From Ostreococcus lucimarinus (Eukaryota), in NCBI GenBank assembly GCA_000092065.1, contig CP000585.1: a DNA stretch of 64,000 bases; one strand, written 5' to 3'. Below are positions 31,870 to 60,767 of this stretch, piece by piece; within the stretch, counting starts at the first letter, position 1; each line of letters starts with the position of its first letter. The translations under genes and the position numbers were made by a program. The notes below the pieces were generated by a model. It did no database searches and was not told where the DNA came from. It saw nothing but the letters and a program-made list of their open reading frames with translations.

Positions 31870-32932
31870 ATGAGCGAAACGGCGACGGTGACGTACCTGG
31901 AGAAATTCGTGGACAGTGCGTGCGCGAGAGCGAGGCGAGAGCGAGGCGAAGGGTGAAATTTCGCTCGGACGACCGAGGACGATCGAGCTCGAACGCGAAG
32001 ACTGACGATCGTTACGCGCGCGTCGTGACGTAGATCTCGCGGACGTCCCCGCGGAGTTGCAGCGGATACTACAAACGATCGGGGAGCTCGATAAACGGAA
32101 CGTGCGATTGCGAGATGCGGTGCAAGCAAAGGTGGACGAGTGCGCGTCGGCGCCGAGTCTGAGCGCGCGAGGCGCGCGCAGCGCCGACGTCGACGCGGTG
32201 AGCACGTTGAAGAAAGAGATCGAAGAACTTCACGATACGATGGCGATGGTATCCAATGAGAAGATACGGTTGGCGCAGATGGCGTTGGATTTAGTGAAAG
32301 GGAACGCGACGGTGCTCGACGCTGAGATGAAGACGTTCCGCACAGAGCTCGAGGAACAAGGTATTAACCCGGACGAGGACGTCGATGATGGGTACGGCTA
32401 CGCGCAGGTGCAAGCGCAGTACCACCGCAAGATGCAAAAGCCGCAATATCAATATCAAAGACCCGCGCCTATGCCGCAGCAGCAGCGCGCGTACGGCGAA
32501 CACGCGATGAGCTCGATGGACGTCGGCGACCTCGTGGCGGCAAACGTAGGGGCGTTGAACCAAAGCGCCGGTGGACAAGAGTGGATCGTTGCGACCGTGA
32601 CTCGATATTCTCCAACTGAACGCGAGTTTGAGATCGTTGATGCGGACGAAGACGCGGAAAAGCACGTGTACCGCTTGCCGCAAAAGTTTGTCATCCCGCT
32701 TCCGAAGACGGCGTCTGTGAAGCAGTCGCAAAACTTTCCCGCCGGGACGAGCGTGCTCGCTGTGTACCCGAACACGACCACGTTCTACAAAGCCAAGGTC
32801 GTGCAACCGGCGAGAAGACTCCCGAACGCGGAGTACAGCGAGTTCGTGTTAGAGTTTGAAGACGACGGCGACGCCGACGGTCAAGCGCATCGCCCCGTGC
32901 CGTTCCGCCACGTCGTCTTATTTCCGCGATGA
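31870..32932 (+). CDS. SGF29: SGF29 (SAGA-associated factor 29; coiled-coil N-terminus plus C-terminal tandem Tudor), 2 exons
   Basis: The long ORF from 32034 has no in-frame ATG until ~60 codons in and begins with a TTG. Upstream, ATG 31870 opens a 46-nt exon (MSETATVTYLEKFVD) ending in phase 1 at a GTGCGT donor (31916). Acceptor tAG at 32032-33 restores the frame (exons 31870..31915 and 32034..32932). C-terminal Tudor signature VLAVYPNTTTFYKAKVVQ...EYSEFVLEFEDD. Confidence 0.6.
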
Positions 32933-33145
32933 GCGGTGCGAGCGGGAACACAGTTTCGCGCGATCGATCGATCGTGCGTGCGCGCTATTTCGTGTAATCA
33001 ACAGGTAGTTTGTTAGCTTTAAAACACGCGACGAACGCTCGACTTCGGCGCGCGCCGAACCAAGTCGTCCCGTCTACTTTTGATTTGAGCCCGTCATCGC
33101 GCGACGACGTCGCTCGGGTCTTTGACCAGACCACACGACGGCCGC

Positions 33146-33607
33146 TTACGCCGGCGGAGACACCCCCGCGTGCGTCTCCAACCACATCTTGAGCTTATCG
33201 TACGAAATCGCCCCCTCGTTCTTCGACCCCGCCACCTCGGCGCCGTCCTTGAACATGATGAGCGTCGGAAGCCCATACACCGAGTACTTCTCCACCAGCG
33301 CCGGGTTCCCATCGCACTCGACCTTCACCACCTTGATCGCATCGCCGTACTCCTTATCAGCCTTCTCCACAATCTTACTGATCAGTTTGCACGGCCCGCA
33401 CCACGACGCCCAAAAATCGACGAGCACCGGCTTCCCCGCGCCCACGACCTCCGCCTCGAACGTCGCCTCGCTCACGTCCGCGACCGCGCGCGCCGTTCGC
33501 GCCGCGCGCGCCTCGCGCCCAGCGCCCGTTCGTCGTCCGCGTCCCATCACCCGACGCGTCGCCGCGCGTCCCATCGTCGGCGTCACCGTCGCCATCGCCG
33601 TCGCCAT
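33146..33607 (-). CDS. Thioredoxin (m-type-like) with N-terminal transit/presequence
   Basis: WCGPCK active site. VLVDFWASWCGPCKLISKIVEKADKEYGDAIKVVKVECDGNPALVEKYSVYGLPTLIMFKDG matches the classic thioredoxin fold. ~50-aa Arg/Ala/Thr-rich N-terminal extension. Confidence 0.8.
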   Translation of the reverse strand: MATAMATVTPTMGRAATRRVMGRGRRTGAGREARAARTARAVADVSEATFEAEVVGAGKPVLVDFWASWCGPCKLISKIVEKADKEYGDAIKVVKVECDGNPALVEKYSVYGLPTLIMFKDGAEVAGSKNEGAISYDKLKMWLETHAGVSPPA

Positions 33608-34631
33608 CGCCGTCGTCCCGCGCGCTCGCGACGCGCGTTCGTTCGCGCGCGCGTCCGCGTCCTCGACGAACGCGCGCGTTCGCGACGTTCAATTTCGCGC
33701 GCGTCGACGCGTTCGCCGCGCTCCCGCGCGTCGTCGTGTGCCGCGCGCGCGCGTCGCGCGATCGATCGCGCGACGTCACGACACGCGTCATCCAGTTTCC
33801 GAATGTCCGAACCCACCGTCGACCCCCTCGCGCGCGACGAGTCCGCACCCGCCATCGCGGCCCCGTCCGAAAAAGAAATAAAAAAAGTCCCGAACGTTTA
33901 CATGGCGCGAAACCGCGCATCGTGCGAGAATGATCTGCTTTTTGACGCGCGTCCTCGACCGCGCGTCGCGCGCCGTCGCCACGTCAGCGCGGTCGCCACA
34001 CGCCGACGACGCCATCGCGCGCGGGCCATCGCGCGCGCGCGAACGCCGCGCGACGCTCGACGGCGCGCGCGAGCGCGGACGCGCGCGAATCCGTCGATCG
34101 CGACGCGATCGCGCGGCGGCGCGACGCGAGGCCGCGGCGACGCGACGCGCGCGCGACCGCGCGAGGCGAACGGACGCGCCAACGGGACGCGGCGACGGGC
34201 GGCGGCGGCGCGGCGACGCGCGACGACGGCGCGCGCGCGACGCGAGAGCGCGAGCGCGCGCGAGCGATCGCGAGTAGAGGTGCGTGGACGCGCGACCGCG
34301 GCGATCCGACGACGCGGCGACGACGGCGCGCGCGCGATGCGGGCGCGGGCGACGCGATGATGCGCTTTTCGGGCATTCGCGAACGGGACGCGGGATTCGA
34401 ATGGAATGACTGACGAATGCGACGGTCGGCGACGGTAGACGGCGCGCGAGTGATCGAACATGGGCGACGTGCGGTTTGTCGCGCGCGAGGATCGAACGGC
34501 GTTCGCGAAGGCGAGGCCGTACGCGTACGCGAGCGAGGTGAGCGGCGAGGCGAATTCGTTCAAACGCGCGGGCGCCCAGCGAGACGCGGTCGAGACGGCT
34601 GACTGACGATTTTATTCCACGTCGCGCGTAG

Positions 34632-35285
34632 ATGTTTGAAAATGTGCGTCACGTTGGGCACGATTTGAAGGTTGAAGACGGTGGCGCGTGGCGCAGGCCG
34701 ACGTACGAGTCGATCGTCGCGGCGCAAGGGCGAGGCGAGCGAAGAGAGCGCGACTCGAGCGTGGAGAGCGACCACACGACGCAGAGCGACGCGTGCGCCA
34801 GGAAGGTGGTCGTCGAGGACGACGGACCGTCGCCCGAGGCTGGGGTCACGTGCGCGTGTTGTCGAACGCAAAAGACACCGTTGTGGAGAAATGGCCCGAC
34901 GGGGGCGAAGACGTTGTGCAACGCGTGCGGCGTGCGCTTCAAGGCGGGTCGCGTCGTGTGCGACGAGGACGGCAACGTCGTGACGTTGGCTCCGCAGAGT
35001 CGAAAGCGATCCTTGAGCGTTGATCACCACGAGCGCGGGCGGCAGCTGAACAAGAGTAACTACGCGGCTTTGCACAAGCGCATCAAGCCTTCGCACTCGT
35101 CGTTTGCGTACACGCATTTGAGCGACGCGCGAATGATCGAGCTCCAACGCGTGGGCGATCGAGGCGCCAAGGCGCCTTTTCCCCGCGTGCACTCTGCGAC
35201 AATTTTGACCGACTACGACGGTGCCGTGCTGCTGATGCTTTTGCACGACGGCGAAGAAAGTGAAGGCGAAAGCGACGAAGACTAG
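34632..35285 (+). CDS. GATA-type zinc-finger transcription factor
   Basis: Single C-x2-C-x17-C-x2-C finger ([34 protein letters not shown]) with an adjacent basic tail. 217 aa. Confidence 0.7.
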
Positions 35286-35421
35286 GTTTGTCTTCAGCAC
35301 CCTGTACCATGACCATTCTGTTTGTTTTTTGTTTTGCGCGCTCTTGGTTTCAGCCGCGGCCCCGAGGTCTTGTCCTCGGGTTGTACTTTTTTCAAATAAC
35401 CCGGTCGCACGAAAGTGCGCC

Positions 35422-35494
35422 TGTAAAAAATCGATTCTTTTTCACGACGTTGAGCGTGACATCGTACAATAAAACCATATTCATAACTCTGTAA
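35422..35494 (+). promoter_or_regulatory. TGTAA motifs in 3' UTR, candidate green-algal-type polyadenylation signals
   Basis: TGTAA at 35422-35426 and 35490-35494, 137-209 nt downstream of the GATA stop. A-rich surroundings. By analogy with Chlamydomonas TGTAA signals. Confidence 0.3.
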
Positions 35495-35575
35495 ACTTTG
35501 CTTTGATGTGTTATAAAAACTTTCCACTTTTTCTCCGTCATATCCAGTTTCTACTCGCGCGACGCGCGCCGACTA

Positions 35576-36247
35576 TTAATGGTGGTCCATAAACTTATCC
35601 ATCGCCACGCTCAACGCCGCCATCGTCGCGCACCCCACCGCCATTCCCGTCGGCCCACTCGTGCGCGCCATCACCCCACCCGTGAAGCAACCCGCGTACG
35701 CGCTATTCGCCACGTCGTGCTTCGCTCGCACCTTTTCCACCACGCACTCGCTCCCGGCGTACAACGCTCCGAACGCCGCGAACCCTTTCGCGTAACTCCA
35801 CGATCGCGCACCCGCGCTTTTCGCACCTTGTCTAATGGTCTCCCTCATCGTCACCTTCGGCGCATCCGGCGCCGGCACCTCCATCGGCTCGAACGCGCCG
35901 AACACCACGCCCATGACCCCGCCCAGGGCGCCGCCGAGCACGCACGACATCACCGTCTTAATCGCGCAGTTATCCATCGCGTCCTGCTGATACACGTCCT
36001 CGGGCGTCGGCAGCTTCACTCGCTCGTACGTCTTCTTCTTTTTCTTCTTCTTCTCCCCCGGCGTCGCCGTCGCCGCGCGCAGTTCGCCGTCAACCTCGCC
36101 CGCCGTCACCTCGCTCGTCGACGTCTCGAGCGTCGACGACGCGTCGTCGCGCGTCACCGACGCCGAAGACGCGTCCATCGCGGTATCGTCCGACATCTCG
36201 CGCGGCGTCGCGCCCGCGCTCGCGTCGCGCGCGTCCGTAGTCGTCAT
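35576..36247 (-). CDS. Tim17/Tim22/Tim23 (PRAT) family inner-membrane translocase-like protein
   Basis: The C-terminal ~150 aa has the family's Gly/Ala-zipper TM pattern (VLGGALGGVMGVVFGAF, GFAAFGALYAGSECVV, AGCFTGGVMARTSGPTGMAVGCATMAAL). Start set at internal Met MTTTDARDAS (36247); an alternative is 36196. Confidence 0.5.
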   Translation of the reverse strand: MTTTDARDASAGATPREMSDDTAMDASSASVTRDDASSTLETSTSEVTAGEVDGELRAATATPGEKKKKKKKTYERVKLPTPEDVYQQDAMDNCAIKTVMSCVLGGALGGVMGVVFGAFEPMEVPAPDAPKVTMRETIRQGAKSAGARSWSYAKGFAAFGALYAGSECVVEKVRAKHDVANSAYAGCFTGGVMARTSGPTGMAVGCATMAALSVAMDKFMDHH

Positions 36248-36286
36248 CGCGCGCGTCGAAGTGCGGGACGGCAGTTCGCGCCGCCC

Positions 36287-37438
36287 ATGGTCGACGCCGA
36301 CGCCGCGGACGGCGTCGAGGGCGACGCGCGCGAGCGCGAGGCGTTTCTGAAGATCGCGCGCGCCGTGCACGCGTACGACGCCGACGCGGCGCGACTGCTC
36401 GAGCGATGGCGCGCGCGACTCGAGCGGGACGACCTGCCGAAACGCTACGACGGCGCGCTCGACGGCGCGCGACGGGACGTGCGAACGCTCGGTGCGAAAG
36501 CCAAGGCGTTAAACTATGATTTCTTGCGGTGCGCGCTGCACACGTTCGTGGATAATGAGCGCGCGCCCGCGCATTTGCGCATTCCGAGCGCGCGCGTCGC
36601 CGCGTGGTCGCGGGACGAAGCGTTTCGCGCGGAGCGGGACGACGTGGATAAGGTGCGGTACGTGCTGAAGAATGTGTGGCGAGATTGGTCGGAAGAGGGT
36701 GCGCGCGAGCGGAAACCGGTGTACGATTTGATATTCTCGGCGTTGAGGGAGAAGTTGGGGGCGATCGACGCGCGCGTCGGGAGCCCGGTTGGCGAGGCGC
36801 CGCGCGTGCTCGTGCCTGGATGCGGTTTGGGACGATTGGTGTTTGAGTTAGCCAAGCTCGGATACGACGCGCAAGGGAATGAGTTTAGTTACTACATGTT
36901 GATGTTCTCTTCGTTTTTGCTGAACGCGACGAGCGAGGTTGGGGAATTTGGAATTTGTCCATGGATGCATAGTCGAAGCAACCATCGCGAGGCGGCGGAC
37001 ATGTGGCGGGAAACGCGCATCCCAGATGAGGTTCCGGGCGACGCGAATTTGCCACCAGGAGCGATGATGAGCATGGCCGCTGGGGACTTCGCGGCGGTGT
37101 ACGGAGAGGCGCGCGAAACCGGAATGTGGGACGCCGTCGTGACGTGCTTCTTCATCGACACCGCGCACAACATCGTAGAGTATTTAGAGTGCATCGCCAA
37201 CTGCCTACGTCCTGGAGGATGTTGGGTGAATTTCGGGCCATTGCTTTATCATTGGGAAGAGTACGTCGACGAACAGAGCGTCGAACTGTCGCTCGAGGAA
37301 GTGCTCGCCGCGGCGGAATCGTTCGGCTTGCGCGTCGAGCGCTCGGAATCGACCGCGCCAGTCGACTACACGAGCGATCCACGCTCCATGCACAAGACGA
37401 CGTACTCGTGCGCGTTCATCGTCGCCACCAAAGTGTAA
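36287..37438 (+). CDS. CARNMT1: Carnosine N-methyltransferase-like (N2227/UPF0586 family SAM-dependent methyltransferase)
   Basis: N2227-type motifs: VLVPGCGLGRLVFELAKLGYDAQGNEFSYYML, ICPWMHS, DAVVTCFFIDTAHNIVEYL, GGCWVNFGPLLYHWEE. Start at internal ATG 36287. The upstream ORF-track part is His/Arg-rich and antisense to the Tim17-like gene. Confidence 0.7.
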   Translation: MVDADAADGVEGDAREREAFLKIARAVHAYDADAARLLERWRARLERDDLPKRYDGALDGARRDVRTLGAKAKALNYDFLRCALHTFVDNERAPAHLRIPSARVAAWSRDEAFRAERDDVDKVRYVLKNVWRDWSEEGARERKPVYDLIFSALREKLGAIDARVGSPVGEAPRVLVPGCGLGRLVFELAKLGYDAQGNEFSYYMLMFSSFLLNATSEVGEFGICPWMHSRSNHREAADMWRETRIPDEVPGDANLPPGAMMSMAAGDFAAVYGEARETGMWDAVVTCFFIDTAHNIVEYLECIANCLRPGGCWVNFGPLLYHWEEYVDEQSVELSLEEVLAAAESFGLRVERSESTAPVDYTSDPRSMHKTTYSCAFIVATKV

Positions 37439-37578
37439 CATCACACAGCTGTACATCGCGCCGCACGCGTCATCGCGCGCGCTCGCATCGCTTCGATTCC
37501 GTCGTCGTCTCGCGTCGCGCTTCTTCCCCTCTCTCCCGCGTCCGCACACCGCGTCGTCGCGCGCGCGGGTCCGGGCGA

Positions 37579-46539: not shown

Positions 46540-47379
46540 TTAGGAGCAACACTTGGACTTTTCGCTCGGCGCCTTGGTGCCGAGGTTGATTCCGCCGGCA
46601 GAGATCGCCCCCTTCGAGCCCGTCAACCGAGTCAACCGAGTCAATCGAGTCTTAATATCGCCCGCGATTGTCATGAATGCGTCCTCCACGTTCACGCTCG
46701 CCTTGGCGCTCGTTTCGAAGAACGGAATCCCGAATTCATCTGCCAACGCCTGCCCGCGAGCCTTCGTAATCGCCCGCTTCTCCTCCGACACGTCGCACTT
46801 GTTCCCGATCAAAATCTTGTTCACACTCGAGCTTGCGTGCTGCTCAATATTTCGCATCCACCCGCGCACGTTTTCAAAGCTCTTCTCATCCGACACATCA
46901 TACACGAGTAAAATCCCCATCGCGCCGCGATAATACGCCGTCGTAATCGTCCTAAAGCGCTCCTGTCCGGCGGTGTCCCAAATCTGCAGCTTCACCCGCT
47001 TCCCATCGATTTCCACCGTTTTAATCTTAAAATCAATCCTTCGCGCATCGACAACCGGTTCTCGGGGTCAGTCACCGCGCCGTCGACGTCGTTTACGCGT
47101 TTCGCGAGCGCCGACGATTCCTTCGCGCACCCGATCGTCGTGATGAAGCTCGTCGTGAACTGATCGTCGCTAAATCTCAACAGCAAGCAACTCTTCCCAA
47201 CGCCTGCGCGCGTTCGTTCGATCGCGCGTCCTCTCGTCAGTCATCGCGGTTCGTTCGCGCTTCGGTCACGCGCGCGCGGAGTTCATCTCTCGTCGCCTCG
47301 CCTCGCCTCGCCTCGCCTCGCGCGCGCGCGCACCGCTATCACCGATGAGCAGCAGCTTGAGCAAGTGATCGTAGTGCAT
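46540..47379 (-). CDS. Rab-family small GTPase (Rab8/Rab10-like), 3 exons
   Basis: Exons (minus) 47379..47334, 47203..47131, 47038..46540, totalling 618 nt in frame. Exon 1 gives [16 protein letters not shown]; exon 2 completes G1 ([24 protein letters not shown]); exon 3 gives [28 protein letters not shown]...GNKCD...ETSAK...CCS. Introns 47333..47204 (donor GTGCGC, acceptor cgcAG) and 47130..47039 (donor GTGCGC, acceptor gaAG). The ORF track shows only GTG/TTG-initiated fragments. Confidence 0.75.
47296..47320. repeat. (CCTCG)5 microsatellite inside Rab intron 1
   Basis: Read directly: cctcgcctcgcctcgcctcgcctcg. Confidence 0.8.
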
Positions 47380-47501
47380 CGACGCGCCGTGCGCGCGCAA
47401 TTGCGCGGCGTTCGACATGGCGCGCGCTCGTGTGACGCGATTGCGCGCGCGCCGATGCCGTCCGCGTCAGACGTCGCCGCGCGTCGTCGCGCGCCGCGGC
47501 G

Positions 47502-48644
47502 ATGCGAGCGATCGAAGGGCACGCGCTGGGCTACGCCTGGGCGTTCGCCGCGTCGCTCGCGAACGCGTCGCAGGACAACTTGAGGAAACTGGCGTCGAAC
47601 CGGGTGAAACAACCAATCGAGATCGTCGCGCTGAGCGAAGTGTTCAACGTCGTCGCGCTGGCGTGCGCGGTCGGCGCGAGTGGGAAGTGGGGGAAGTTCG
47701 CGCGGTACGCGCGACGAGGGGATCTCGTGGCGCTGGCGGCGGCGGCGGGATGGTTGAAGGCGTTGAGCGCGGCGCTGTTGCAACGGGCGCTGCGGTTGAC
47801 GCCGTTGTCGCTGTGTGTGCCGTACCTGGCGTTCACGCCGCTGTGGTTATTGGTGATTAGCTTTTTCTTAGTGCACGAGACGCCGACGTTGCGTGGAGTG
47901 TTGGGGGTGATGGTGATCACGGTCGGGGCGTACATGTTGAACGCGAACAGCGCGGCGCCGGAGAAACTGGAAAAGAGTCCGCGGTTGGAGGAAGGGCTCG
48001 TTCGCGGCGGTGGTGGGTCTTCTGGACGGGTTCGGAGTGCGAGAGAGTCGCTGGAATCGCTCGCGACGCCGCCGACGAACGGTGCGGGTTGGATGTCTAT
48101 AGCGTTTAGCGAAGCCGCGGCGTCGTCGTTTCGCGAGGAGCGTTACGGTGTGAGGTTGGGATGCGTCGGGCGATCAGTTGCGAGGCAGGTGACGACCTTG
48201 CGCGCGAATCCTGGGAGTTTAATCACTCTCGGCATCGCCGCCGTCTACGCTCTCGTCGCTGATCTCGACAAGCTCGGTAAATTGCACTCCGACGACTTGC
48301 TCGTGTTCATCTTTTTGCAGAGATGTTTCCTATTGGCGCCACCTCTGACGTACGTCATGGTGAAAAATCCAGCAGCCTTCAACGTTTTCACGAAAACAAA
48401 GAAGGTTGGCTGCGCGTTAGCTCTCATAGGTTTCCTCGACATCGCCTCCATGTACGCCTTCCTACAGTCGCTGAACTACATCTTCACGAGCTACGCCGTC
48501 GCGGCCAAGCGTACGAGCATCCTAGCCAGCGTCGTCGGCGGCGCGCTCTTCTTCAAAGAGCCCATCGCCCGGCGATTGCCGTATATATTCATCATGTTCA
48601 TCGGCATGGCGTTGATATTAATCGCCGATGCCGACAAGCATTAG
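47502..48644 (+). CDS. Multi-pass membrane protein (10 predicted TM; possibly EamA/DMT-superfamily transporter)
   Basis: 380-aa ORF with repeated hydrophobic helices in two halves. Family assignment is tentative. Divergent from the Rab gene, with ~120 bp between start codons. Confidence 0.45.
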   Translation: MRAIEGHALGYAWAFAASLANASQDNLRKLASNRVKQPIEIVALSEVFNVVALACAVGASGKWGKFARYARRGDLVALAAAAGWLKALSAALLQRALRLTPLSLCVPYLAFTPLWLLVISFFLVHETPTLRGVLGVMVITVGAYMLNANSAAPEKLEKSPRLEEGLVRGGGGSSGRVRSARESLESLATPPTNGAGWMSIAFSEAAASSFREERYGVRLGCVGRSVARQVTTLRANPGSLITLGIAAVYALVADLDKLGKLHSDDLLVFIFLQRCFLLAPPLTYVMVKNPAAFNVFTKTKKVGCALALIGFLDIASMYAFLQSLNYIFTSYAVAAKRTSILASVVGGALFFKEPIARRLPYIFIMFIGMALILIADADKH

Positions 48645-48739
48645 CGCGCGCGACGGTGTCAATACAACACGAGCGCCGTCGGTGCGGGTTCAAAACTCTT
48701 CACCCCATCCCCTTCACTCTCGCCCGCGCGCCTCTCGCG

Positions 48740-50449
48740 ATGGCCGACCAAGACAGCAATGAAAAAGAAATTGAAAGTACGTCGCGCCCCATCGCATCGC
48801 TCGATCGATCGCGTCGCCCGCGCCCTCGGGCGCGCGTGCGGCGTTGATAAAGCGCGCCGATGACTTCGGCCTAGGTCGAGTGCGCGTACGGTTTCACCTC
48901 GCTCGCGTCGCTACGAACGCGCTCGAGACGCTCGCGACGCGCGCGCGAGGTCATGAATGGCACGCGTGACCACGAGCGAACGACTGACGAGACATTCGCG
49001 CCGCGCGCGCGCGCCGTTGACGATGAACAGTATGGAAGATGCGCAAGGTGCGACTGGCGGCTCGAACTCGACGCGCTCGTGGGAGCAAAAACGATGAGAA
49101 ATCGCGACGTGTCGGCATCGCGAACGAGGTGAACGAAGACTGACGGACTATTATATCGTTTTACTCGAACGTAGCTCATCAAGAAGCTGGAAGACGCGCG
49201 CGGGAACGGGACGTCGATGATTTCGCTCGTGATCCCGCCGAAAGGGCAAGTGAACCTGGTGCAAAAGATGTTGATCGAAGAGATGGGCACGGCGACGAAC
49301 ATTAAGTCTCGAGTCAATCGACAGTCAGTGCTCGATGCGATCGGTTCGGCACAACAGCGCTTGAAGCTGTACAATAAAGTGCCGCCGAATGGGCTCGTCG
49401 TGTATTGCGGCGCGGTGTTGACGGAGAGCGGGAAGGAACGGCAGATGAAGATTGATTTTGAACCCTTCAAACCGATCAACACGTCGTTATACATGTGTGA
49501 CAACAAGTTTCACACTGCAGCGTTGAGTGATTTGTTGCAAAACGATCAGAAGTATGGTTTCGTCGTAATGGATGGTAACGGGACGCTCTTCGGAACCTTG
49601 TGCGGGAACCATCGCGAGATTCTACAAAAGATTTCCGTTGATTTACCGAAAAAGCACGGTAGAGGTGGTCAATCCGCGCTTCGTTTCGCGCGTCTGCGTT
49701 TAGAAAAACGTCAAAACTACCTTACCAAGGTTGCTGAGCTCACGACGCAGCATTTCATCAGTAATGATAGGCCCAACGTCGCCGGCTTGGTGCTCGCCGG
49801 TTCGGCGGATTTCAAGAACAAACTCGCCGAGGCGGATTGCTTCGACAGTCGCCTTCAAGAAGTCACCTTGGCCGTAGTCGATGTCTCTTACGGCGGTGAA
49901 AACGGCTTTAATCAAGCGATTGAGCTCTCCGCGGACACGCTTTCGTCGCTCAAGTTCATCCAAGAAAAGAAATTGGTTGGCAAGTTTTTCGACGAAATCG
50001 CCCAAGACACGGGCAAGTACGTTTTTGGTATCAACGATACTTTGACGTGCTTGGAAATGGGAGCGGTTGAAACTTTGGTGTGCTGGGAAGATCTCGAGGT
50101 CGCGCGCGTGACCCTGAAAAATAGCAGCACCGGAGAGGAGACGATTAAGTTTTTGCGGCCCGAAGAGACTGAGGGCAATGAAAACGACCACGTGCGCGAC
50201 GCCGATGGCAACGATTTGGAGATTGTCGAATCCGTCCCGCTGTTGGAGTGGCTAGCAAACGAGTACAAGAAGTTTGGTTGCGTCTTGGAACTCATCTCGG
50301 ATAAGTCGCAAGAGGGTAACCAATTTTGCCGTGGTTTCGGCGGCATCGGCGGTTTGTTGAGATATCAAGTCGATCTCACCGCCTTCGAAGTCGCCGCCGA
50401 CGCCAACTCCGACGATTGGGACTCCGACGATTCCGAATGTTTCATCTAA
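48740..50449 (+). CDS. ERF1: Eukaryotic peptide chain release factor subunit 1 (eRF1), 3 exons including a 17-nt microexon
   Basis: Exons 48740..48776 ([12 protein letters not shown], phase 1, donor GTACGT), 49031..49047 (tatggaagatgcgcaag giving IWKMRK, acceptor gaacAG, donor GTGCGA), 49175..50449 ([23 protein letters not shown]...). NIKS motif ([12 protein letters not shown]), GGQ motif ([15 protein letters not shown]), and near-identity to eRF1 through to the acidic C-terminus. Confidence 0.85.
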
Positions 50450-50578
50450 CCCTTCCCGTTGCATTGACTCGATCCTAACGCCACATCCCATAGCATTAAC
50501 AATAAGACGACCCTGGCAGTTGTTCGACGCCGCGCGCGCGAGCGCCTTATCCTTCACACGCGCGCGCGTTCGCCGTCG

Positions 50579-51085
50579 GTGCCCTCCCGCGACGCGGCGC
50601 GCCTCCGTAAACGTACCATGGGTATCGCCGCCAGCGCCACGTCTGGCTCCATCGCGCGTCGCGTCGCTCGTGACGACGACGCAACGAACAAGTCGTTAGC
50701 GTTACACCCCGTGCACGCCGACGCCCGCGCCCTCCCGCCCTGGACGCCGTCCTCCATCATCGACGCCCTCCCGGACGACATGGTGGACATCATTCTCGAC
50801 CACTGCACCGGCGTCGACCTCGCGCGCGCGGAGTGCGTGTGCACGAGGTTGCTCTCGCTCGCGCGACGCAGCGAACGAAGGTGGCGGGACGCCCTCGCGC
50901 GCGACTTCGGCGTGCAATTCGCCCCAGCCCCGGGCGTCGAACGACTGCCGGGGCTGCCGCGAGGATCGATGAAGCGCGAGTACGTCGCGTGTCGAGAGAC
51001 GCTCCGCGCGATCGTGCGTGGGTGCGCGAAAGGCGCCGACGGCGGCGTCCCGAACTTTGCGCTCGGGACGAGGGTGTACGCGTGA
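50579..51085 (+). CDS. F-box-like domain protein (small)
   Basis: F-box-like segment IIDALPDDMVDIILDHCTGVDLARAECVCTRLLSLA. 168 aa. The stop lies only 28 nt before the TMEM18 start on the same strand, so gene-model status is uncertain. Confidence 0.4.
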   Translation: MPSRDAARLRKRTMGIAASATSGSIARRVARDDDATNKSLALHPVHADARALPPWTPSSIIDALPDDMVDIILDHCTGVDLARAECVCTRLLSLARRSERRWRDALARDFGVQFAPAPGVERLPGLPRGSMKREYVACRETLRAIVRGCAKGADGGVPNFALGTRVYA

Positions 51086-51113
51086 ACGCCGCAGTCTTAG
51101 ACGCGCGCGATCG

Positions 51114-51581
51114 ATGGATTTCGATCGCCTGCTCGAGGGCGCGCTGAAGGATGCGCGTCGACATCTCGGGTCGTCGAGTAAGGACGGCTGGCGCGCCGCC
51201 ATCGACGCGTGGGTTGGGTTTTATAGCGCGGTGGATTGGCGCGAGCCGTGGTTGAGAGCCTTGCTCGCCGCCCACGCGTGCTTGTTTATCGTCGTTTTGC
51301 TCACGCGAAGAGATGAGCGAACGCAAGGAGTGTTGTTCTGCGCGTGCGCGGCGATCGTATTCATGGCGGAGCGCATCAACGCTCTGGCGGCGGCGAAGTG
51401 GGAAACCTTCGCGACTCAAAACTACTTCGACCCGAGGGGTCGGTTCACGTCCGTCGTGCTCTCCACGCCGCTGGTCGTGGCGACGCTCGTGATTTTGGTG
51501 AATTTGTTACTCATCATGACGTCGATGATGGTTGAAGTGGCGAAACGGCGCAAAGACGCGGGGGTGAAGAAGACTCAATGA
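51114..51581 (+). CDS. TMEM18: TMEM18 (transmembrane protein 18) homolog
   Basis: Internal Met MDFDRLLEG. Conserved DWREPWL motif (human DWTEPWL), then three TM helices and a basic C-terminal tail (KRRKDAGVKK), as in TMEM18. Confidence 0.7.
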   Translation: MDFDRLLEGALKDARRHLGSSSKDGWRAAIDAWVGFYSAVDWREPWLRALLAAHACLFIVVLLTRRDERTQGVLFCACAAIVFMAERINALAAAKWETFATQNYFDPRGRFTSVVLSTPLVVATLVILVNLLLIMTSMMVEVAKRRKDAGVKKTQ

Positions 51582-51761: not shown

Positions 51762-52928
51762 TCAGTCAAATTTGACGACGTCGTGCTGAACGCAAATCTG
51801 TTTGATGTGGTCGAATTTCGACTTGGCGTCGGGGATGTCCAAGCTCAAGTCTTCGATCGCGCCGTTGGTGCGTATGAAGCCTTTCTGTAGTTGACTCGCG
51901 CTCAATTCGGCGCTGTCTCCGAGAACCTTGAATAGCCCGAGAATGACTGCAACGCTGTGGCAATCCCGCGGAGCTTCCAGCGCAATGTTCAACGCTTGCT
52001 TGACAAACTCGTGATGGAAGAAGGGCATGTGTAGGTCGTGCAAGCAACGACGAGTCTCCGAAACGTCGTTCGTCACCACGTATTCCTCCAGCATCGACTT
52101 GATTTGCAGCTTGGCGGCGTCCAGAGGCGACTTGTCGAAATCGCCCCACGCGCGAAGCACTCGATCAATGTGACCAGGTCCAAAGAGATGTCCGTGTGCC
52201 AGTAGAAGGGCCTCTTGCGACTGTTTACCTTCGCACGTTACGAGACAGGCGACGTTATCCGGGAATGAGGGCGGTAAGATGTCGTCGATGATGGCTCGCG
52301 CGATGAACATGCCCAACGTTTCAGCCGCGTCGGGAACGTCGATGGACAAATCATCCGCGGCTTCGACGAGACGCAAGAACCCACGCTGTATTTGCGCTCC
52401 CGACAGCGCGCTGGGATACAACGCGCTGAGTAACGTCGCCGCGGCTTCTTTTTCTCGATGCCCCCGGTCCATAGCGAGGGTAACGAGGCGCTTCACGAAG
52501 AAGTGTTCGTACACGGGCGCGTCCAACTTCTCCACGCTGATCCACGCCTCGTCAATGTCCGCAGAGTTGAAATACTCGTTGATGATCGTCTCGGCTTTGT
52601 TTTTGTACTCCACGACGACGTCCGATTTCGCGTCGCCCGCCGCCGCGCGCAACCCAAACGGTTCCTCCGTCGAGTCGTAATTCGGATCTCCCCTATCCAA
52701 CGCGAACACAGGCGATTCATCGATCACGCTCAGCACGCGCATTGTTTCATCACCCTTCTTACCCCGCCCGCTCGCTCGACTGTGCTGCACCCCGTGTCCA
52801 TCGGTCCATTTTTGCTCGAGCGCGTCGCCTCGCCGGTCCGAGCCCTTCGCGCGCGCCGCCTCCAACTGCGTTCGCTTTCGCAGCGTCGCGTCGAACGCCT
52901 TTTGCTGTTCGGCCGTGAGCAGCACCAT
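51762..52928 (-). CDS. PDCD4-like protein with two MA3 domains
   Basis: N-terminal RASGRGKKGD and DESPVFALDRGDPNYDSTEEP (compare PDCD4 VDVKDPNYDDDQE). Two MA3 units (AETIINEYFNSADIDEAWISVEKL... and DAAKLQIKSMLEEYVVTNDVSETRRCLHDLHMPFFHHEFVKQAL...). Confidence 0.7.
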   Translation of the reverse strand: MVLLTAEQQKAFDATLRKRTQLEAARAKGSDRRGDALEQKWTDGHGVQHSRASGRGKKGDETMRVLSVIDESPVFALDRGDPNYDSTEEPFGLRAAAGDAKSDVVVEYKNKAETIINEYFNSADIDEAWISVEKLDAPVYEHFFVKRLVTLAMDRGHREKEAAATLLSALYPSALSGAQIQRGFLRLVEAADDLSIDVPDAAETLGMFIARAIIDDILPPSFPDNVACLVTCEGKQSQEALLLAHGHLFGPGHIDRVLRAWGDFDKSPLDAAKLQIKSMLEEYVVTNDVSETRRCLHDLHMPFFHHEFVKQALNIALEAPRDCHSVAVILGLFKVLGDSAELSASQLQKGFIRTNGAIEDLSLDIPDAKSKFDHIKQICVQHDVVKFD

Positions 52929-53314: not shown

Positions 53315-53382
53315 GACCCGCGCGTTCGCCGCGCGGCACCGTCGACGCCGCCGCGTCGACCGCGTCCCTCGATCGTCCCTCA

Positions 53383-53640: not shown

Positions 53641-53945
53641 CCGGCGTCGGTCGTCTCGAGCGCGTCGGCGTCGCGCGCGGGCGTTCGCGGTGTCGCGGTC
53701 GCGCGTCGAGGGTGACGCGGCGCGCGCTTTTCGATCGCGCGCTTCGAGCGCGTCGACGTGTGCGCGCGCGCGACGCGCGCGCGTCGACGCGCGCTGCTGA
53801 CGCGGACGCGGGCGTCGGTCCGTGTTGCGGTCCGTGTTGAAGCGACGCTTCGCGTCGCGGCGTCGACCGACGGCGCGCGCGCGGCGACGCACTCGCGCGC
53901 GCGACGAACGCGACGAACGCGACGCGCGAACGACGCGCGATCGCG

Positions 53946-54638
53946 ATGCCGCGAGGGCGAACCGAGGACGGCGCGCGCGAGGGAGGACGGCGAAGGGTGA
54001 CGCGCGGCGGATGGCGATGGGTCCGCGGCGCCGCGCTCGCGGGCGTCGCGCTCGCGAGCGGCGGCGCGCGCACGGCGCTGGCGAAGAGCAAACTGCAGAT
54101 CGTGAACGCGGGACACGATATCGCGCACGCGTCGCACATACTGTGCGGGACGGGGGACGCGGGGAAGCGAAAGTGTCAGGATTACGCGGAGATGTTGACG
54201 CCGTACCAGGACTCGGCGCACACGCTGGAGCGAGCGTTCGCCGAACTCGCGAGGCGGTACAGCGAGTGTCCGACGGGAAGCGACGGTGGTGATTTGGGGT
54301 ATTTTCCGAGAGGCGAGATGTCGCGAGATTTCGAGAGCGTCGTGTTCGATTCCAAGACGCCGTTGGACGCGGTGGTGGGACCGGTGGAGACGAGAAACGG
54401 TTGGCACGTCATGCTCGTGCACCACAGGCATCTCGCGGATGAAGACGCGAAGGAAAGGGCGCGTTTGAAATCTGAAGAGATGAAGAGAGAACGATTGGAG
54501 CGCGCGGAGAAGCAGAAGGAGTATCAAGAGGAACGGGCGCGTCGAAAGGCGCAACGAGCGGCGAAGCGCCACGAGCGAGACGCCGATAGACACTCGCTTC
54601 ACGCACACGCCGAGGAGCACCTTCACGATGAACTGTAA
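53946..54638 (+). CDS. Parvulin-type peptidyl-prolyl cis-trans isomerase (PpiC/Rotamase domain) with signal/transit-like N-terminus and charged C-terminal tail
   Basis: Rotamase core AHASHILCGTGD...LGYFPRGEMSRDFESVVFDS...GPVETRNGWHVMLVHHR. K/E/R-rich C-terminus. Confidence 0.6.
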   Translation: MPRGRTEDGAREGGRRRVTRGGWRWVRGAALAGVALASGGARTALAKSKLQIVNAGHDIAHASHILCGTGDAGKRKCQDYAEMLTPYQDSAHTLERAFAELARRYSECPTGSDGGDLGYFPRGEMSRDFESVVFDSKTPLDAVVGPVETRNGWHVMLVHHRHLADEDAKERARLKSEEMKRERLERAEKQKEYQEERARRKAQRAAKRHERDADRHSLHAHAEEHLHDEL

Positions 54639-54705
54639 GAGCGCCGTTATGACAGCTGAAGCGTATAGACACCAACATCACCGCATGCATTAAAAATAAT
54701 TTGAA

Positions 54706-56037: not shown

Positions 56038-56245
56038 TCGTCGACGCGGTTCGTTTCATGTCCCCGAAAACGCCCGCGGTGACGTCGGCGCCCGCGCGTC
56101 GCGACGAGCGCGCGCGCGAGGGCGAACCCGTGGAGGTGTTCGCCGCGCACTCGCCCTACGACGCGCTGTGCGTGCTCGTGGCGCTCGTTCTCGGGCTGTT
56201 TCGAGCGGCGAGCGCGCGGTGCAGCTGCTGAATCGAGTCGAAACG

Positions 56246-57805
56246 ATGAAGCGCGAAGACGCGCTGCGCGCGACGAGCGCGACGCTGCGCGCGCGATCCG
56301 TGCACGAAGCTCGCGTGCGACGATTGAACGACGCGCGCGCGAGGGAGGCGCCGGATGGGGCGTACGTGTTGCTCTGGGCGCAGAGCGCGCAGAGGACGCG
56401 CTGGAACGAGGCGTTGGAGTACGCGGTCGACCGGGCGAACGATAGACGCGCGCCGCTCGTGGTCGTGTTTTGCTCGACGGCGACGTACCCGGAGGCGAAC
56501 GAACGACACGTTGGGTTCATGTTGGAGGGGTTGTGTGAGATGCGGGCGACGCTCGGGAAGCGGCGAATCGCGTTCGAGGCGTTCGCGTGCGCGCCGCCGG
56601 AGGCGGCGCTGGCGGCGAGCGAACGAGCGATCGAAGTGGTGACGGATTCGGGGTATTTACGGTTACTTCGCGCGTGGCGGGATGACTTGGCGCGGAGGGC
56701 AACGTGCGCGGTGACGGAGATCGAGACCGAGTGCGTGGTGCCGCAGTTGGGGCAGGGGGCGCGACGCGCGGAACCGTCGGCGGCGACGTTTCGGCCGAAG
56801 GTGCTGGCTCGCGTGCGGGAGTTCACTAGAAACGCGTGCGCCGTGCTGCCTTACATCGCGGGCGAACTGGATGACGCGACGCGCGCGATTTTTGAGAAGA
56901 CTGTCGACAAGTACGAGCGGCTGCCGCTCGAGCGAGGCGTCGACGCGTGCTTGAACGTCCTCGACGCTTACGGGCTAAAGCGAGATCCCAGCTGTCCTCG
57001 CGTGTCGTCTCACGTCGGTGGAGAGTCTCGAGCCAAGGCGAAGCTCGATGTGTTTTTGACGAAAAACATGCTCTCGCGCTATCATCATTCGCGTAACGAT
57101 CCGTGTTTGTGTTTGCAGAGTCATCTGTCGCCGCACATTCACTACGGGCAAATCTCCGTCGTCGAAGTGGCTCGCAAAGCGCTCGCGTTTCGCGACGCAC
57201 ACGCCGATGAAGCCGACATCTGTGCAAGCGTGGATGTTTTCCTCGACGAACTCATCGTACGAAGAGAGTTGGCGGTGAATTTTGCGCTGCGAAACCCAAA
57301 GTATGATTCTTACGACGGGCTTCCCGAATGGGCGCGAGAGACGCTGGAGAGGCATCGAGGTGATCGCCGCGAATGGACGTATACACTCGAGGAGTTTGAA
57401 CACGGCCGAACGCACGATAAGTTATGGAATGCATCGCAACGAGAGCTTGTGTCCAGTGGTAAACAACACAATTACTTGCGAATGTACTGGGGAAAGAAAA
57501 TCCTCGAATGGAGCTCGACGCCAGAAGAGGCTTGGCGTATCGCGATGACGCTCAACAATAGATATTCACTCGACGGTCGAAATATGGTTTCTTTGACCGG
57601 CGTGGGATGGTGTTTCGGCCTGCACGACCGTGAATTCCACGAGGCGAGCATAACTGGCACGATTCGACGCTTTTCTGAATCTGGCATGCGCAAGAAGTTC
57701 CCAGCCGGAATAAAGGGCTACCTCGAGCGTTGGGGCGACGACGGAGGGACGAAACGCCAACTGCGACTCGAAGACGTGTTCGGCAAACGATCGAAATCGA
57801 AATAG
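56246..57805 (+). CDS. PHR: Class II CPD photolyase (deoxyribodipyrimidine photolyase)
   Basis: Start at internal ATG (MKREDAL), ~520 aa. N-terminal LLWAQSAQRTRWNEALEYAV...RAPLVVVFC. C-terminal FAD-binding signature HNYLRMYWGKKILEWSSTPEEAWRIAMTLNNRYSLDGRNMVSLTGVGWCFGLHDREF, diagnostic of class II photolyases. Confidence 0.8.
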   Translation: MKREDALRATSATLRARSVHEARVRRLNDARAREAPDGAYVLLWAQSAQRTRWNEALEYAVDRANDRRAPLVVVFCSTATYPEANERHVGFMLEGLCEMRATLGKRRIAFEAFACAPPEAALAASERAIEVVTDSGYLRLLRAWRDDLARRATCAVTEIETECVVPQLGQGARRAEPSAATFRPKVLARVREFTRNACAVLPYIAGELDDATRAIFEKTVDKYERLPLERGVDACLNVLDAYGLKRDPSCPRVSSHVGGESRAKAKLDVFLTKNMLSRYHHSRNDPCLCLQSHLSPHIHYGQISVVEVARKALAFRDAHADEADICASVDVFLDELIVRRELAVNFALRNPKYDSYDGLPEWARETLERHRGDRREWTYTLEEFEHGRTHDKLWNASQRELVSSGKQHNYLRMYWGKKILEWSSTPEEAWRIAMTLNNRYSLDGRNMVSLTGVGWCFGLHDREFHEASITGTIRRFSESGMRKKFPAGIKGYLERWGDDGGTKRQLRLEDVFGKRSKSK

Positions 57806-57863
57806 TATCATCAGTAGTCACATTTTGAATCATCATGTTGCAAACAATTGTATATGCTAAGCA

Positions 57864-59171
57864 TCACGCCGCGGCCGTCGTCGAGGTATCGAGGCGGTGT
57901 CTATCTGCTATTTCCGCTGCGCTTTGCGCGACCAAGGCGCGCAAATACGCTTCGACCGAACATCTTCCGGTCGAACCGACGGTGCTGTACGCCAAAAACG
58001 GGAGCTTTCTGAGAGCGCGACCGCTCAGTCCGTCGCAAGCTTCGGCAGCTTCGCGCAAAGTCAGCGACACCGGGCAACCTTTCGCGACACCATCGTCGAA
58101 TTCCATCGGCTCAGCGCCCTGCACCAAATCGCGACGAATGAGCTCAAGCACGCAGGAGCGCAAAATCTCGTACCTCGCTCGCATGCCGGGCGGGCCGATG
58201 TAGCATTTGATATCCGCGCGATCGACAAACGCTAGATCGATCGCTTCGGTGATGTTGCTCGTCGTTAGCACGATGGCGTTCGGTCTAGACTTCAGCGCGT
58301 CAAGCTGCGTGAGCAGAGCGTTGACGACGCGAATCGCGTCGCTGGGTTCCGAACCGTTCGCCGCACTCTTTCTCGCCGCAGCCAGACTTTCGACTTCATC
58401 GACGAGCACGAAAACCAAAGAATCTTCGTCTTCTAATAACTCTTGTATCTTACCGAACAGTTTACTCACCAACTTTCCGCTCTCGCTAAACCAACGACTG
58501 AAGAGCGAATGCGCGTTCACCTCCACCAACACGCTGCTCGAGTATATATGATTAAACCTGATGGACAACCGCTGCGCCAACGCCTTACACATCGTCGTCT
58601 TCCCCGTCCCCGGCGGTCCATGCAACAACACCACGCGATTCCACGAGATGAGCTGCGCGTCCACGCCGCGTTCACCGAACAACAGCGCCGCCGTCGCGTA
58701 CCGCAGCAGTCGCGTCTTCACCTCGTCGTCGTCGAAAATCAAAGACTCCCACGCGCCCTCAAAATCCACACACGGCAGGCTCCACTCCGTGTACGTCGCG
58801 ATCTCGTCTCCTTCCCCGATCTCCTCCCCCGGCCCGTCCTCGCACAGCCCGTACGCGCGCGTCGTCAGCGCGCACTGCCACGCCAACAACCGTCGCGTCC
58901 CGCGCCCCTTCCCCTCGTCCCCGTCCAGCCACTCCACGTCCGACACCCACACCTTATCGCACTGCGCGCGCAAAAACGCCCCCGCCTCGCACTTCCAATC
59001 GCTCTCGTCCCCGTCCACGAGCGCGCCCGCGCGCGCGTCGTCCACGCACGCCTTGCGCTCGAGCACGAACGTTCGAACCGCCGCCTCGATGGCGTCGTTC
59101 GTCGCCGTCGACCGCGCGCGCCGTCGCGCGTCGACGTGCACGCGCGCGACGATCGCGTCGCCGTCGCCCAT
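57864..59171 (-). CDS. TRIP13: TRIP13/PCH2 AAA+ ATPase (pachytene checkpoint protein 2)
   Basis: Walker A LLHGPPGTGKTTMCKALAQRLSIRF and Walker B VFVLVDEVESLAAARK. Long near-identical blocks to human TRIP13 (SLFSRWFSESGKLVSKLFGKIQELLEDEDSLVFVLVDEVESL...EPSDAIRVVNALLTQLD...VDRADIKCYIGPP...GLSGRALRKLPFLA). Start at internal Met MGDGDAIVARVHV. Confidence 0.8.
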   Translation of the reverse strand: MGDGDAIVARVHVDARRRARSTATNDAIEAAVRTFVLERKACVDDARAGALVDGDESDWKCEAGAFLRAQCDKVWVSDVEWLDGDEGKGRGTRRLLAWQCALTTRAYGLCEDGPGEEIGEGDEIATYTEWSLPCVDFEGAWESLIFDDDEVKTRLLRYATAALLFGERGVDAQLISWNRVVLLHGPPGTGKTTMCKALAQRLSIRFNHIYSSSVLVEVNAHSLFSRWFSESGKLVSKLFGKIQELLEDEDSLVFVLVDEVESLAAARKSAANGSEPSDAIRVVNALLTQLDALKSRPNAIVLTTSNITEAIDLAFVDRADIKCYIGPPGMRARYEILRSCVLELIRRDLVQGAEPMEFDDGVAKGCPVSLTLREAAEACDGLSGRALRKLPFLAYSTVGSTGRCSVEAYLRALVAQSAAEIADRHRLDTSTTAAA

Positions 59172-59314
59172 CGCGCGCGCGTCGCGGTCGTTCGTCGCGC
59201 GCGTCGCGTCGTGCGGGCGTCGCGCGTCGCGCGTCGCGACGCGTCCCGTGTCTCGACGAGTCACGACCCATCGATCGAGGTGTTAATTACTCAAAATAAG
59301 CGAATAGGAATCGT

Positions 59315-59324
59315 AATATAAAGA
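59315..59324. promoter_or_regulatory. TATA-like element (taatataaag) in AT-rich island of the TRIP13 / RWP-RK divergent intergenic region
   Basis: It sits in the only AT-rich ~70-bp stretch (59281-59350) of an otherwise GC-rich 420-bp divergent spacer. A promoter role is inferred. Confidence 0.25.
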
Positions 59325-59590
59325 CGTGATATTTCACATACATTTTTAACTCCAGACGAGAAGCGCGGACGAACCGATGACGACATGTCGGCGCGACGTC
59401 CCGTCCCGGGCGCGACGCGAAAACCGCGCGATACTGCGCGGTCATAGGCGACCGCGCCCCCACACGCGCGCGCGCGGACGCGCGCCGCTCGCGCCGGGTT
59501 TGACCGCCGACGAGGCCCGCGCGACGCGAGGACAACGACATCGTCTTCGCGCGCACGCGACGAGGGCCGAACGACGGCCGCGCGCGACGG

Positions 59591-60767
59591 ATGTCGGCGG
59601 TGGAGACGACGACGAACACCGGGCTCCCGATTCGGATGCCGAACGACGCGCGCGGCGCGACGCACGCGATCGATCCGCTGAGCGACGTGCACACGGCGGT
59701 GAAATCGGCGACGGGGACGAAGATCATCGCGCTGATCGACGTGAGCTCGAGGTTCGCGCTGCCGATCGCGCAAGCGGCGAAAGAGGTGCGGGCGAGATTA
59801 GATTTCCGGAGGATCGCGGCGCGGCGCGCGACGAGTTTCGAGAGACTGACGCGCGAATGGGTCGACGCGGAAACAGCTGGATGTGTGCGTGACGGTGCTC
59901 AAGTCAACGTGTCGCGCGTTCGGCATCATGCGATGGCCGTATCGAAAGATGCGAAAACTGAACACTATGATTAAGCAGCTCGAGCGGTCGGCGAGAAACG
60001 CCGCCGAGGAAAACATATTACATCATAGAATGAAGCGACTTGAAGCGTGTCGACGTGCGAGAGATTTGTTGGTGCTAGAAGCAGAGGCGAACGCACGGGC
60101 GCGAATCGGAAAACCCGCCTCGCAGCAGTCCGCCAAGGCGGAGATAGCGTCGACGGGCGCGCGCTACGATTCCAGCGGGCGACTGGGCAACTTTAAGGAT
60201 CCTGGATACGCTTTCGATACCGACCACAAGGGTTATGCGCTGCATGAGGCGATGCGGAAGATGATGGAGACTGAGGGGTTAGATACGATCGGTCGTTCTG
60301 GTCACGTGGATGTCGAATCTGACCCACTGAGCGAACTCGCCTCGCAGGTTACCGCCGTGCAAGAGCGTTTCGTGCGACGGCCAAATCGCAACAAAAGACA
60401 GCTACCAACCAGATGCCCGGAAGAGATGGCACTACATGAATTCGTCATGGGCAATCCGGGACTCGAGGCAATGGCTTCGTTGACCGCGCGATTGCGCCGG
60501 CAAAAGGAATCGAAGAAACAGACGTCTGAGCACGCCGACGACGCGGACGGCGAAGTCGACATCGATGGGGACGACGGGAAGCAAATTGCGTGGATCGTAA
60601 GCTCTCAAAGTCCAGCCTATACCGTCAATGTCCGTCCAAGTAACCCAACGGCGCGAATTCCAGACGTCTTGGTAGAGGAACGCTCTCGGCGAGAAGCCAC
60701 CTCTCCGCTCGAGCCCAGTCTAGCTCTGTTCCCGTTAAATGTGTCAGCAATCCACAGTGCGGCTTGA
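59591..60767 (+). CDS. RWP-RK domain transcription factor (MID/NLP/RKD family), 2 exons with the RWP-RK domain split by an intron
   Basis: Exon 1 59591..59785 ends ...IIALIDVSSRFALPIAQAAKE (donor GTGCGG). Exon 2 59877..60767 (acceptor aacAG) begins LDVCVTVLKSTCRAFGIMRWPYRKMRKL. Joined, they give the canonical RWP-RK core (compare [36 protein letters not shown]). The two halves lie in different frames in the ORF track. Confidence 0.7.

Follow-up and report, generated by a model that had tools for sequence, protein, structure and literature searches.

In Ostreococcus lucimarinus, the introns confirmed by expressed sequence tags (ESTs) outside chromosome 2 were reported to have an atypical 5' consensus, GTGCGTG, with 4.8 bits at these sites, and to carry ACTGAC in 87% and GACTGACG in 66.5% of the cases, while the low-GC part of chromosome 2 shows a more typical GTRNGT (Irimia & Roy 2008, PMC2483917). 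In Micromonas the canonical introns read AG/GTGCGT with an NCTGAC box and belong to a class common to all Mamiellophyceae, and introner elements were found in no published mamiellophycean genome besides Micromonas (Verhelst et al. 2013, PMC3879977). It has also been reported that the Mamiellales favour GYGCGY donors and that the pairing region of their U1 is standard (bioRxiv 10.1101/2022.06.08.495308). Here we describe eight introns located between positions 31,870 and 60,767 of a stretch of 64,000 nucleotides of O. lucimarinus (contig CP000585.1 of GenBank assembly GCA_000092065.1), hereafter called the window, in the genes encoding SGF29, a GATA factor, a Rab8/RabE-type GTPase, the release factor eRF1 and an RWP-RK protein.

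We consider, with a probability of about 95%, that these are ordinary U2-type GT-AG introns of the high-GC, intron-poor "canonical" class of the Mamiellophyceae. The donor, the branch motif and its distance to the acceptor, the high-GC and intron-poor setting and the singleton nature of the sequences are all those of this class. The GTGCG donor and the ACTGAC branch site are already published as the standard signals of O. lucimarinus, and finding them here is a correct rediscovery. What is added is a set of eight individually RNA-verified examples, including an intron in a 5' untranslated region (5'UTR) and a pair of introns around a microexon of 17 nt.

The junctions were checked against intron-less contigs from independent Logan or JGI assemblies with about 99-100% identity to the window, and all eight introns were found to be removed exactly. 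In the eRF1 gene three contigs (L005-L007) join position 48776 to the 17-nt microexon and this to position 49175. Three others (L008-L010) join 31915 to 32034 in the SGF29 gene and five (L011-L015) join 59785 to 59877 in the RWP-RK gene. Both Rab introns are missing from contig L018, which was reached via the protein of an environmental haplotype. The precise loss of GT-AG introns in these contigs indicates that their source was spliced RNA. The six introns that an earlier note had inferred from the letters of the sequence and from protein resemblance (two in Rab, two in eRF1 and one each in SGF29 and RWP-RK) are thus all at the places where it had put them, as the RNA contigs and the RefSeq proteins agree. 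Its description of the donors (five GTGCGN and one GTACGT) and of the lengths (91-254 nt) also stands. In contrast, the acceptors had been said to be always preceded by C or A, while in these six introns they are CAG in three, TAG in two (SGF29 and eRF1 intron 2) and AAG in one. The label "non-canonical" was a misnomer, the introns being GT-AG with an atypical extended consensus.

Two further RNA-confirmed introns of the same interval had been overlooked, both in the GATA gene (34280-34438 and 34538-34631). They were pointed to by copies of ACTGAC at 34409 and 34602, upstream of the open reading frame (ORF) containing the GATA finger. The coding intron is spliced out in contigs L016 and L021-L028. 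The intron of the 5'UTR was predicted by its signals alone (GTGCGTG, GACTGACG, a distance of 25 nt and TAG) and RNA contigs afterwards confirmed it, five independent ones (L021, L022, L023, L026 and L027) having lost it. Splice signals of this kind are therefore strong enough for the stand-alone prediction of an intron, as in this case. The statement that no donor of the GTAAGT/GTGAGT type occurs remains correct for the six introns on which it was made, but it does not extend to the GATA coding intron of the same interval, whose donor is GTGAGC.

The spliced translations were also looked up for exact matches to the RefSeq proteins of O. lucimarinus CCE9901. The eRF1 protein is identical to XP_001417750.1, that of SGF29 to XP_001417743.1, that of RWP-RK to XP_001417754.1 and the 243-aa GATA factor to XP_001417744.1, and the Rab protein, when counted from its second ATG, is identical to XP_001417998.1. 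The introns are therefore already present in the reference annotation. The coordinates and signals of all features are collected in Table 1.

Table 1. Exons, introns and repeat copies in the window, with their signals, the evidence for them and the donor of the O. tauri orthologue
Feature	Position	Strand	Signals and evidence	O. tauri donor
SGF29 exon 1	31870..31915	+	ATG at 31870; protein match XP_001417743.1; contigs L008-L010	
SGF29 intron, 118 nt	31916..32033	+	5' GTGCGT, 3' TAG; junction 31915/32034 in L009	
SGF29 intron branch box GACTGACG	32000-32007	+	branch A 28 nt from 3' end	
SGF29 exon 2, tandem Tudor C-terminus	32034..32932	+	exact protein match; RNA contigs	
GATA 5'UTR intron, 159 nt	34280..34438	+	5' GTGCGTG, GACTGACG, branch A 25 nt from 3' end, TAG	
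GATA coding exon 1	34460..34537	+	spliced 243-aa model identical to XP_001417744.1	
GATA coding intron, 94 nt	34538..34631	+	5' GTGAGC, GACTGACG, 3' TAG	
GATA exon 2, GATA zinc finger	34632..35285	+	exact protein match; RNA contig	
Rab8/RabE-type GTPase exon 1	47334..47418	-	first in-frame ATG 47418; RefSeq start is the second ATG, 47379	
Rab intron 1, 130 nt	47333-47204	-	5' GTGCGC, GACTGACG, branch A 33 nt from 3' end, CAG	GTGCGG
Rab intron 1 position	phase 1, Gly codon of GDSG/VGKS	-	spliced model	
Rab exon 2, 73 nt	47131..47203	-	spliced model; RNA contig L018	
Rab intron 2, 92 nt	47130-47039	-	5' GTGCGC, GACTGACC, branch A 29 nt from 3' end, AAG	GTGGGT
Rab intron 2 position	phase 2, Gly codon of TTIG/IDF	-	spliced model	
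5' copy of TGCGCGAAGGA in Rab intron 2	47119..47129	-	intron +2 to +12	
3' copy of TGCGCGAAGGA in Rab intron 2	47037..47047	-	last 9 intron nt and first 2 exon nt	
Rab exon 3	46540..47038	-	spliced model; RNA contig L018	
eRF1 exon 1	48740..48776	+	exact protein match; RNA contigs	
eRF1 intron 1, 254 nt	48777..49030	+	5' GTACGT, GACTGACG, branch A 43 nt from 3' end, CAG	GTGCGT
eRF1 17-nt microexon TATGGAAGATGCGCAAG	49031..49047	+	contigs L005-L007, between exons 1 and 3	
eRF1 intron 2, 127 nt	49048..49174	+	5' GTGCGA, GACTGACG, branch A 31 nt from 3' end, TAG	GTACGA
eRF1 exon 3	49175..50449	+	exact protein match	
RWP-RK exon 1	59591..59785	+	exact protein match	
RWP-RK intron, 91 nt	59786..59876	+	5' GTGCGG, GACTGACG, branch A 27 nt from 3' end, CAG	GTGCGT
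RWP-RK exon 2	59877..60767	+	exact protein match	

The signals shared by these introns are few and tightly kept. GTGCG is found at the start of six of the eight introns and GTRCG at the start of seven. ACTGAC is present in all eight, seven times as GACTGACG, always as a single box with its branch A 25-43 nt before the 3' AG. The tract between branch and AG is 33-64% pyrimidine, and no clear polypyrimidine tract was seen in any of the eight introns. Since only 4.1% of the GT dinucleotides of the window are followed by GCG, the probability of finding this in at least five of seven introns is ~2e-6; this count refers to the introns known before the GATA 5'UTR intron was added, with which it becomes six of eight. 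That all introns should have ACTGAC inside this narrow range ahead of the AG has a chance probability of the order of 1e-19.

The motifs taken by themselves are less telling. The 64-kb window has 15 copies of ACTGAC on both strands together, six of them within the six introns of the earlier note, and the sites that remain outside the eight introns are coding, antisense to coding, overlapping a stop codon or intergenic. One of these, at 19290, was considered as part of an intron joining two very long ORFs of the same strand, but a stop codon, a spacer of ~95 nt and a new ATG make it intergenic, and another, at 51766 on the minus strand, was discarded as an intron signal as it overlaps a stop codon. 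Compared with dinucleotide shuffles, ACTGAC is rarer (15 copies against 22 +/- 4.6) and GACTGACG commoner (8 copies, seven of them inside introns, against 4.2 +/- 2.1), neither difference being significant alone. A scan for the combination of motifs (ACTGAC preceded at 20-350 nt by GT[GA]CG and followed at 20-45 nt by an AG) gave 9 hits against 11 +/- 3 in 200 dinucleotide shuffles. With GTGCG so abundant in this GC-rich DNA (302 copies on both strands), the scan carries no information. A search by motif only does not discriminate, and the significance must therefore rest on junctions that were defined independently. An attempt to find more introns by filtering CTRAC sites by ORF coverage failed, as long spurious ORFs in GC-rich DNA mask the real introns.

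The window has ~60% GC overall, with 52-68% per 2 kb, and six measured introns have 54-72%. From this composition and from synteny we infer that it lies outside chromosome 2. An all-against-all blastn of the eight introns and the window returned only GC-rich low-complexity matches, the best of them 32 nt of a GCGAG-type repeat.

Some simple sequence was noticed in the course of these comparisons. The SGF29 intron and Rab intron 1 match over 32 nt with 90.6% identity. In several introns (31916, 47333, 34538 and 59786) a G-rich simple sequence of the GCGAGG type comes right after the donor, and the O. tauri orthologues of the RWP-RK intron and of Rab intron 1 have a similar G-rich sequence at this place; it may represent either low complexity or an extension of the intronic signal. 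Rab intron 1 also contains, at about 47290-47320 of the minus strand, a (GCGAG)n microsatellite that shows length differences of 5 and 10 nt in environmental haplotypes of Ostreococcus (L001-L004). As these changes are not multiples of three, the segment is independently marked as non-coding.

The syntenic locus of O. tauri (CAID01000005.2) covers five of the intron positions, and introns are present at all five (donors in Table 1). In each of these O. tauri introns ACTGAC stands at 28-32 nt from the AG. The interiors of the introns are 60-71% identical between the two species, with gaps, whereas the neighbouring exons are 82-85% identical and ungapped. The eRF1 microexon, which is bordered by introns of 254 and 127 nt and codes for part of EIWKMRK, is kept in O. 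tauri with one substitution. Judging from gene ranges and product lengths, 3 of the 15 genes in the syntenic stretch of O. tauri have introns (Rab, eRF1 and RWP-RK), which fits an intron-poor genome. The two Rab introns have identical positions in Arabidopsis RABE1d, in phase 1 at GDSG/VGKS and in phase 2 at TTIG/IDF. Positions shared with both O. tauri and Arabidopsis make these introns ancient, and both seem to be older than the split between green algae and land plants.

Each of these short introns carries three strong marks, namely the donor G-T-(G/A)-C-G-N, a single (G)ACTGAC(G) box and an AG 25-43 nt after the branch adenosine, and splicing would likely proceed by intron definition. In such a scheme U1 and then U6 would read the 5' site. 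With the standard U1 sequence ACUUAC reported in Mamiellales, position +3 of GUGCGU would form a G-U wobble and position +4 would be mismatched. Base pairing of U2 with ACUGAC would bulge the A, and the first suitable AG at the constrained distance from the branch would be used as acceptor, there being no clear pyrimidine tract as guide. The few remaining introns would be near-invariant in signal, as in other intron-poor eukaryotes. The junctions, the motifs, their spacing and the conservation in O. tauri come from the data presented here, while the pairings with small nuclear RNAs (snRNAs) are drawn from general knowledge of the spliceosome and from the cited papers.

Some results weigh against assigning these introns to the canonical class or against the pairings proposed for them. 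GTGAGC in the GATA coding intron is the sole departure from GTRCG among the eight, and GTGGGT in the O. tauri orthologue of Rab intron 2 makes the consensus strong but not absolute. The RNA origin of the contigs was deduced from their loss of introns and not from run metadata. An Rfam scan of the 64 kb gave no family above threshold and no snRNA gene to which the pairing model could be applied. Finally, for a terminal repeat as long as 10 nt or more, such as that of Rab intron 2, to occur in any of six introns the P is ~0.017 under a first-order Markov model. As the earlier note had been made without RNA data, and as GTGCG is so frequent that a donor-like motif is always near, it might be argued that guessing the junctions from homology produced artefacts and that the true transcript structures differ. 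This we regard as almost inconceivable, given that independent intron-less contigs fit every junction to the base, including those of the 17-nt eRF1 microexon, and that the spliced models reproduce the RefSeq proteins exactly. The earlier note also saw GTGCG as fitting the GC bias of the genome, and it might be only a by-product of composition at unconstrained positions +3 to +5 and not a selected signal. The composition of the window and the more typical GTRNGT of the low-GC part of chromosome 2 agree with this. Nevertheless the 4.1% of GT followed by GCG is far from the six of eight introns observed, no other triplet as rich in GC is used, the O. tauri orthologues retain the motif despite the diverged interiors, the EST-confirmed 5' sites reach 4.8 bits (Irimia & Roy 2008) and Micromonas has the same consensus, so that this account does not hold and a purely compositional origin is very unlikely. 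Less easily dismissed, although still unlikely, is the existence of a co-evolved machinery in the Mamiellophyceae (either a second spliceosome or a changed snRNA or protein) by which +4C and GACUGACG would be read on the high-GC chromosomes only. This possibility was raised for Ostreococcus by Irimia & Roy, a single genome contains two classes of introns whose signals differ strongly, and co-evolved U1 snRNAs are described in Entamoeba and Mastigamoeba (bioRxiv 10.1101/2022.06.08.495308). The same work, however, found in those Mamiellales genomes where a U1 candidate could be recognized a single one with a standard pairing region, and the window, having no snRNA gene, has no bearing on the question. 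In the same vein, it is doubtful that GTGCG, GACTGACG and the fixed distance, with no pyrimidine tract and a U1 that is reportedly standard, are read by a Mamiellophyceae-specific adaptation of the spliceosome (in U6, U5, U1C, Prp8 or SF1/U2AF-type factors) working beside a relaxed mode for the outlier chromosome, a question already posed by Irimia & Roy 2008 (PMC2483917).

Rab intron 2 deserves separate attention, as it was said to be flanked by an 8-nt direct repeat of the kind left by introners. The repeat, TGCGCGAAGGA, is in fact 11 nt long and exact, and its copies are close to both intron ends but lie almost wholly inside the intron instead of flanking it. An exact direct repeat in this place, nominally rarer than chance by the P value given above, together with the introners known in the related genus Micromonas, could suggest a recent introner insertion with the repeat as its target-site duplication. 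By the in-register criterion for such duplications (Gozashti et al.), the repeat is out of register: its copies are spaced 82 nt apart whereas the intron has 92 nt, so that splicing would not restore the pre-insertion sequence, and only 5 of 20 positions are identical in register at the two splice sites. Moreover the Rab mRNA keeps no copy of the repeat and the protein reads TTIG/IDFK without indel. Terminal inverted repeats were not found in the intron, which has only two short internal palindromes, and apart from GC-rich low-complexity matches no similar sequence was seen in the other seven introns or in the rest of the 64-kb window. In O. tauri an intron interrupts the Rab gene at the same codon and in the same phase but has no 11-nt repeat, and Arabidopsis RABE1d shares this position too; among published mamiellophycean genomes introner elements occur only in Micromonas (Verhelst et al. 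2013, PMC3879977). With a repeat out of register, no terminal inverted repeats, no relatives in the window and an ancient position, the introner signature is not sustained and an insertion of this type is extremely unlikely. Gain of the intron by tandem duplication (AGGT) was rejected as well, since exon end and intron end, and likewise intron start and exon start, do not match in register. The 11-nt repeat most likely arose by coincidence in GC-rich low-complexity sequence or through a small event specific to O. lucimarinus within an ancient intron.

A likeness of another kind was seen in the RWP-RK gene, where the end of exon 1 (GGCGAAAGAG, 59776-59785) resembles the end of the intron (GCGGAAACAG, 59867-59876), with 11 of 20 in-register matches at the splice sites. 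As the O. tauri orthologue is without it, this likeness is probably due to chance.

The tight, lineage-specific donor GTGCGN, unlike GTAAGT or GTGAGT, was expected to defeat gene finders that do not model such introns, and this is borne out by the structures missed at this locus. The fragmented ORFs starting with GTG or TTG are simply the output of a bacterial ORF listing on an intron-containing eukaryotic gene. The public protein collection tells the same story: the 410-aa form of eRF1 is found on 475 contigs and the complete protein of 442 aa on 3, and the catalogue contains fragments of Rab (158 aa), SGF29 (291 aa) and RWP-RK (272 or 292 aa). These genes are mostly present there as exon fragments because of prokaryote-style gene calling. 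A homology search with Rab recovered no full-length Ostreococcus representative and exon fragments only. One Rab fragment, MDA9599491.1, bears the name "hypothetical protein, partial [bacterium]", suggestive of a contig of Ostreococcus that was placed with a bacterial genome during binning. Splice models made for the lineage (GTGCGN, then GACTGACG and an AG ~25-45 nt later) are required for annotating Ostreococcus and other Mamiellales, also in the numerous contigs of marine metagenomes where this locus is found. The value of our results is in this sense practical only, since the literature already covers the consensus, the way it differs from chromosome 2 and the question of snRNA changes to match it.

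The start of the Rab protein may also need revision. The ATG at which the RefSeq protein XP_001417998.1 (205 aa) starts reads CAG (Gln) in four environmental haplotypes, while the in-frame ATG located 39 nt upstream (47418) is conserved. The 218-aa model starting from this first ATG had no exact match in the protein collection. The second ATG, used by RefSeq, is strain-specific. Nevertheless the conserved upstream ATG, along with the existence of a 218-aa transcript-derived protein, suggests that 13 residues are missing from the RefSeq N-terminus.

Three of the contigs showed additional features. Contig L016 starts at ~34412, adjoining the branch adenosine of the GATA 5'UTR intron, and keeps the rest of this intron although it is without the next one; it may stem from an incompletely spliced RNA or from a lariat intermediate, or its start may be due to chance. 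Contig L005 (window positions 47713-51537) spans the genes for EamA, eRF1, F-box and TMEM18 proteins, and contig L018 (45340-48618) those for WD40, Rab and EamA proteins, the introns being spliced out in both cases. Either transcripts overlap or read through in this very compact genome, or overlapping UTRs were merged during assembly.

When compared with the intron systems described so far, the eight introns could be separated from several of them. Membership of the U12 type was rejected, as neither the 5' /RTATCCTT nor the TCCTTAAC branch site is found in any of the eight. The BOC1 introns, located in the low-GC region of the "big outlier chromosome" (chromosome 2 in Ostreococcus), belong to the same genome and are GT-AG like those described here; however, they are 40-75 nt long and AT-rich, with no branch motif and weak GTRNGT donors, whereas the present ones have 91-254 nt, 54-72% GC in the six measured and ACTGAC in all eight, and were therefore not assigned to that group. 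With introners (Micromonas IE-A to IE-D; Gozashti et al. 2022) they share the condition of short picoalgal introns, Micromonas IE-C even carrying GACTGACG, and in Rab intron 2 a direct repeat near the ends. Nevertheless Rab intron 2 has no related copy among the eight introns or in the 64-kb window, no in-register duplication and none of the terminal inverted repeats that occur in many families of DNA transposons, and its position is ancient.

The introns of intron-poor yeasts (Saccharomyces, GTATGT and TACTAAC) resemble the present ones in their near-invariant donor and branch box and in the constrained spacing between branch and AG. Moreover they have an atypical pyrimidine at +4, with a standard U1 reportedly kept. 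The motifs are nevertheless different (GTGCGT and ACTGAC here) and the lineage is unrelated, so that the resemblance is convergent. The canonical introns of Micromonas RCC299 and CCMP1545 share with those of the window the AG/GTGCGT and NCTGAC signals, the unique sequences and the low number per gene, and differ in the reported distance from branch to acceptor, which is 43-52 bp against 25-43 nt here. Finally, the canonical introns of O. lucimarinus outside chromosome 2 have the same donor, the same branch box and a constrained distance from the branch to the 3' end, and all eight introns fit this description except for the GTGAGC donor of the GATA coding intron.

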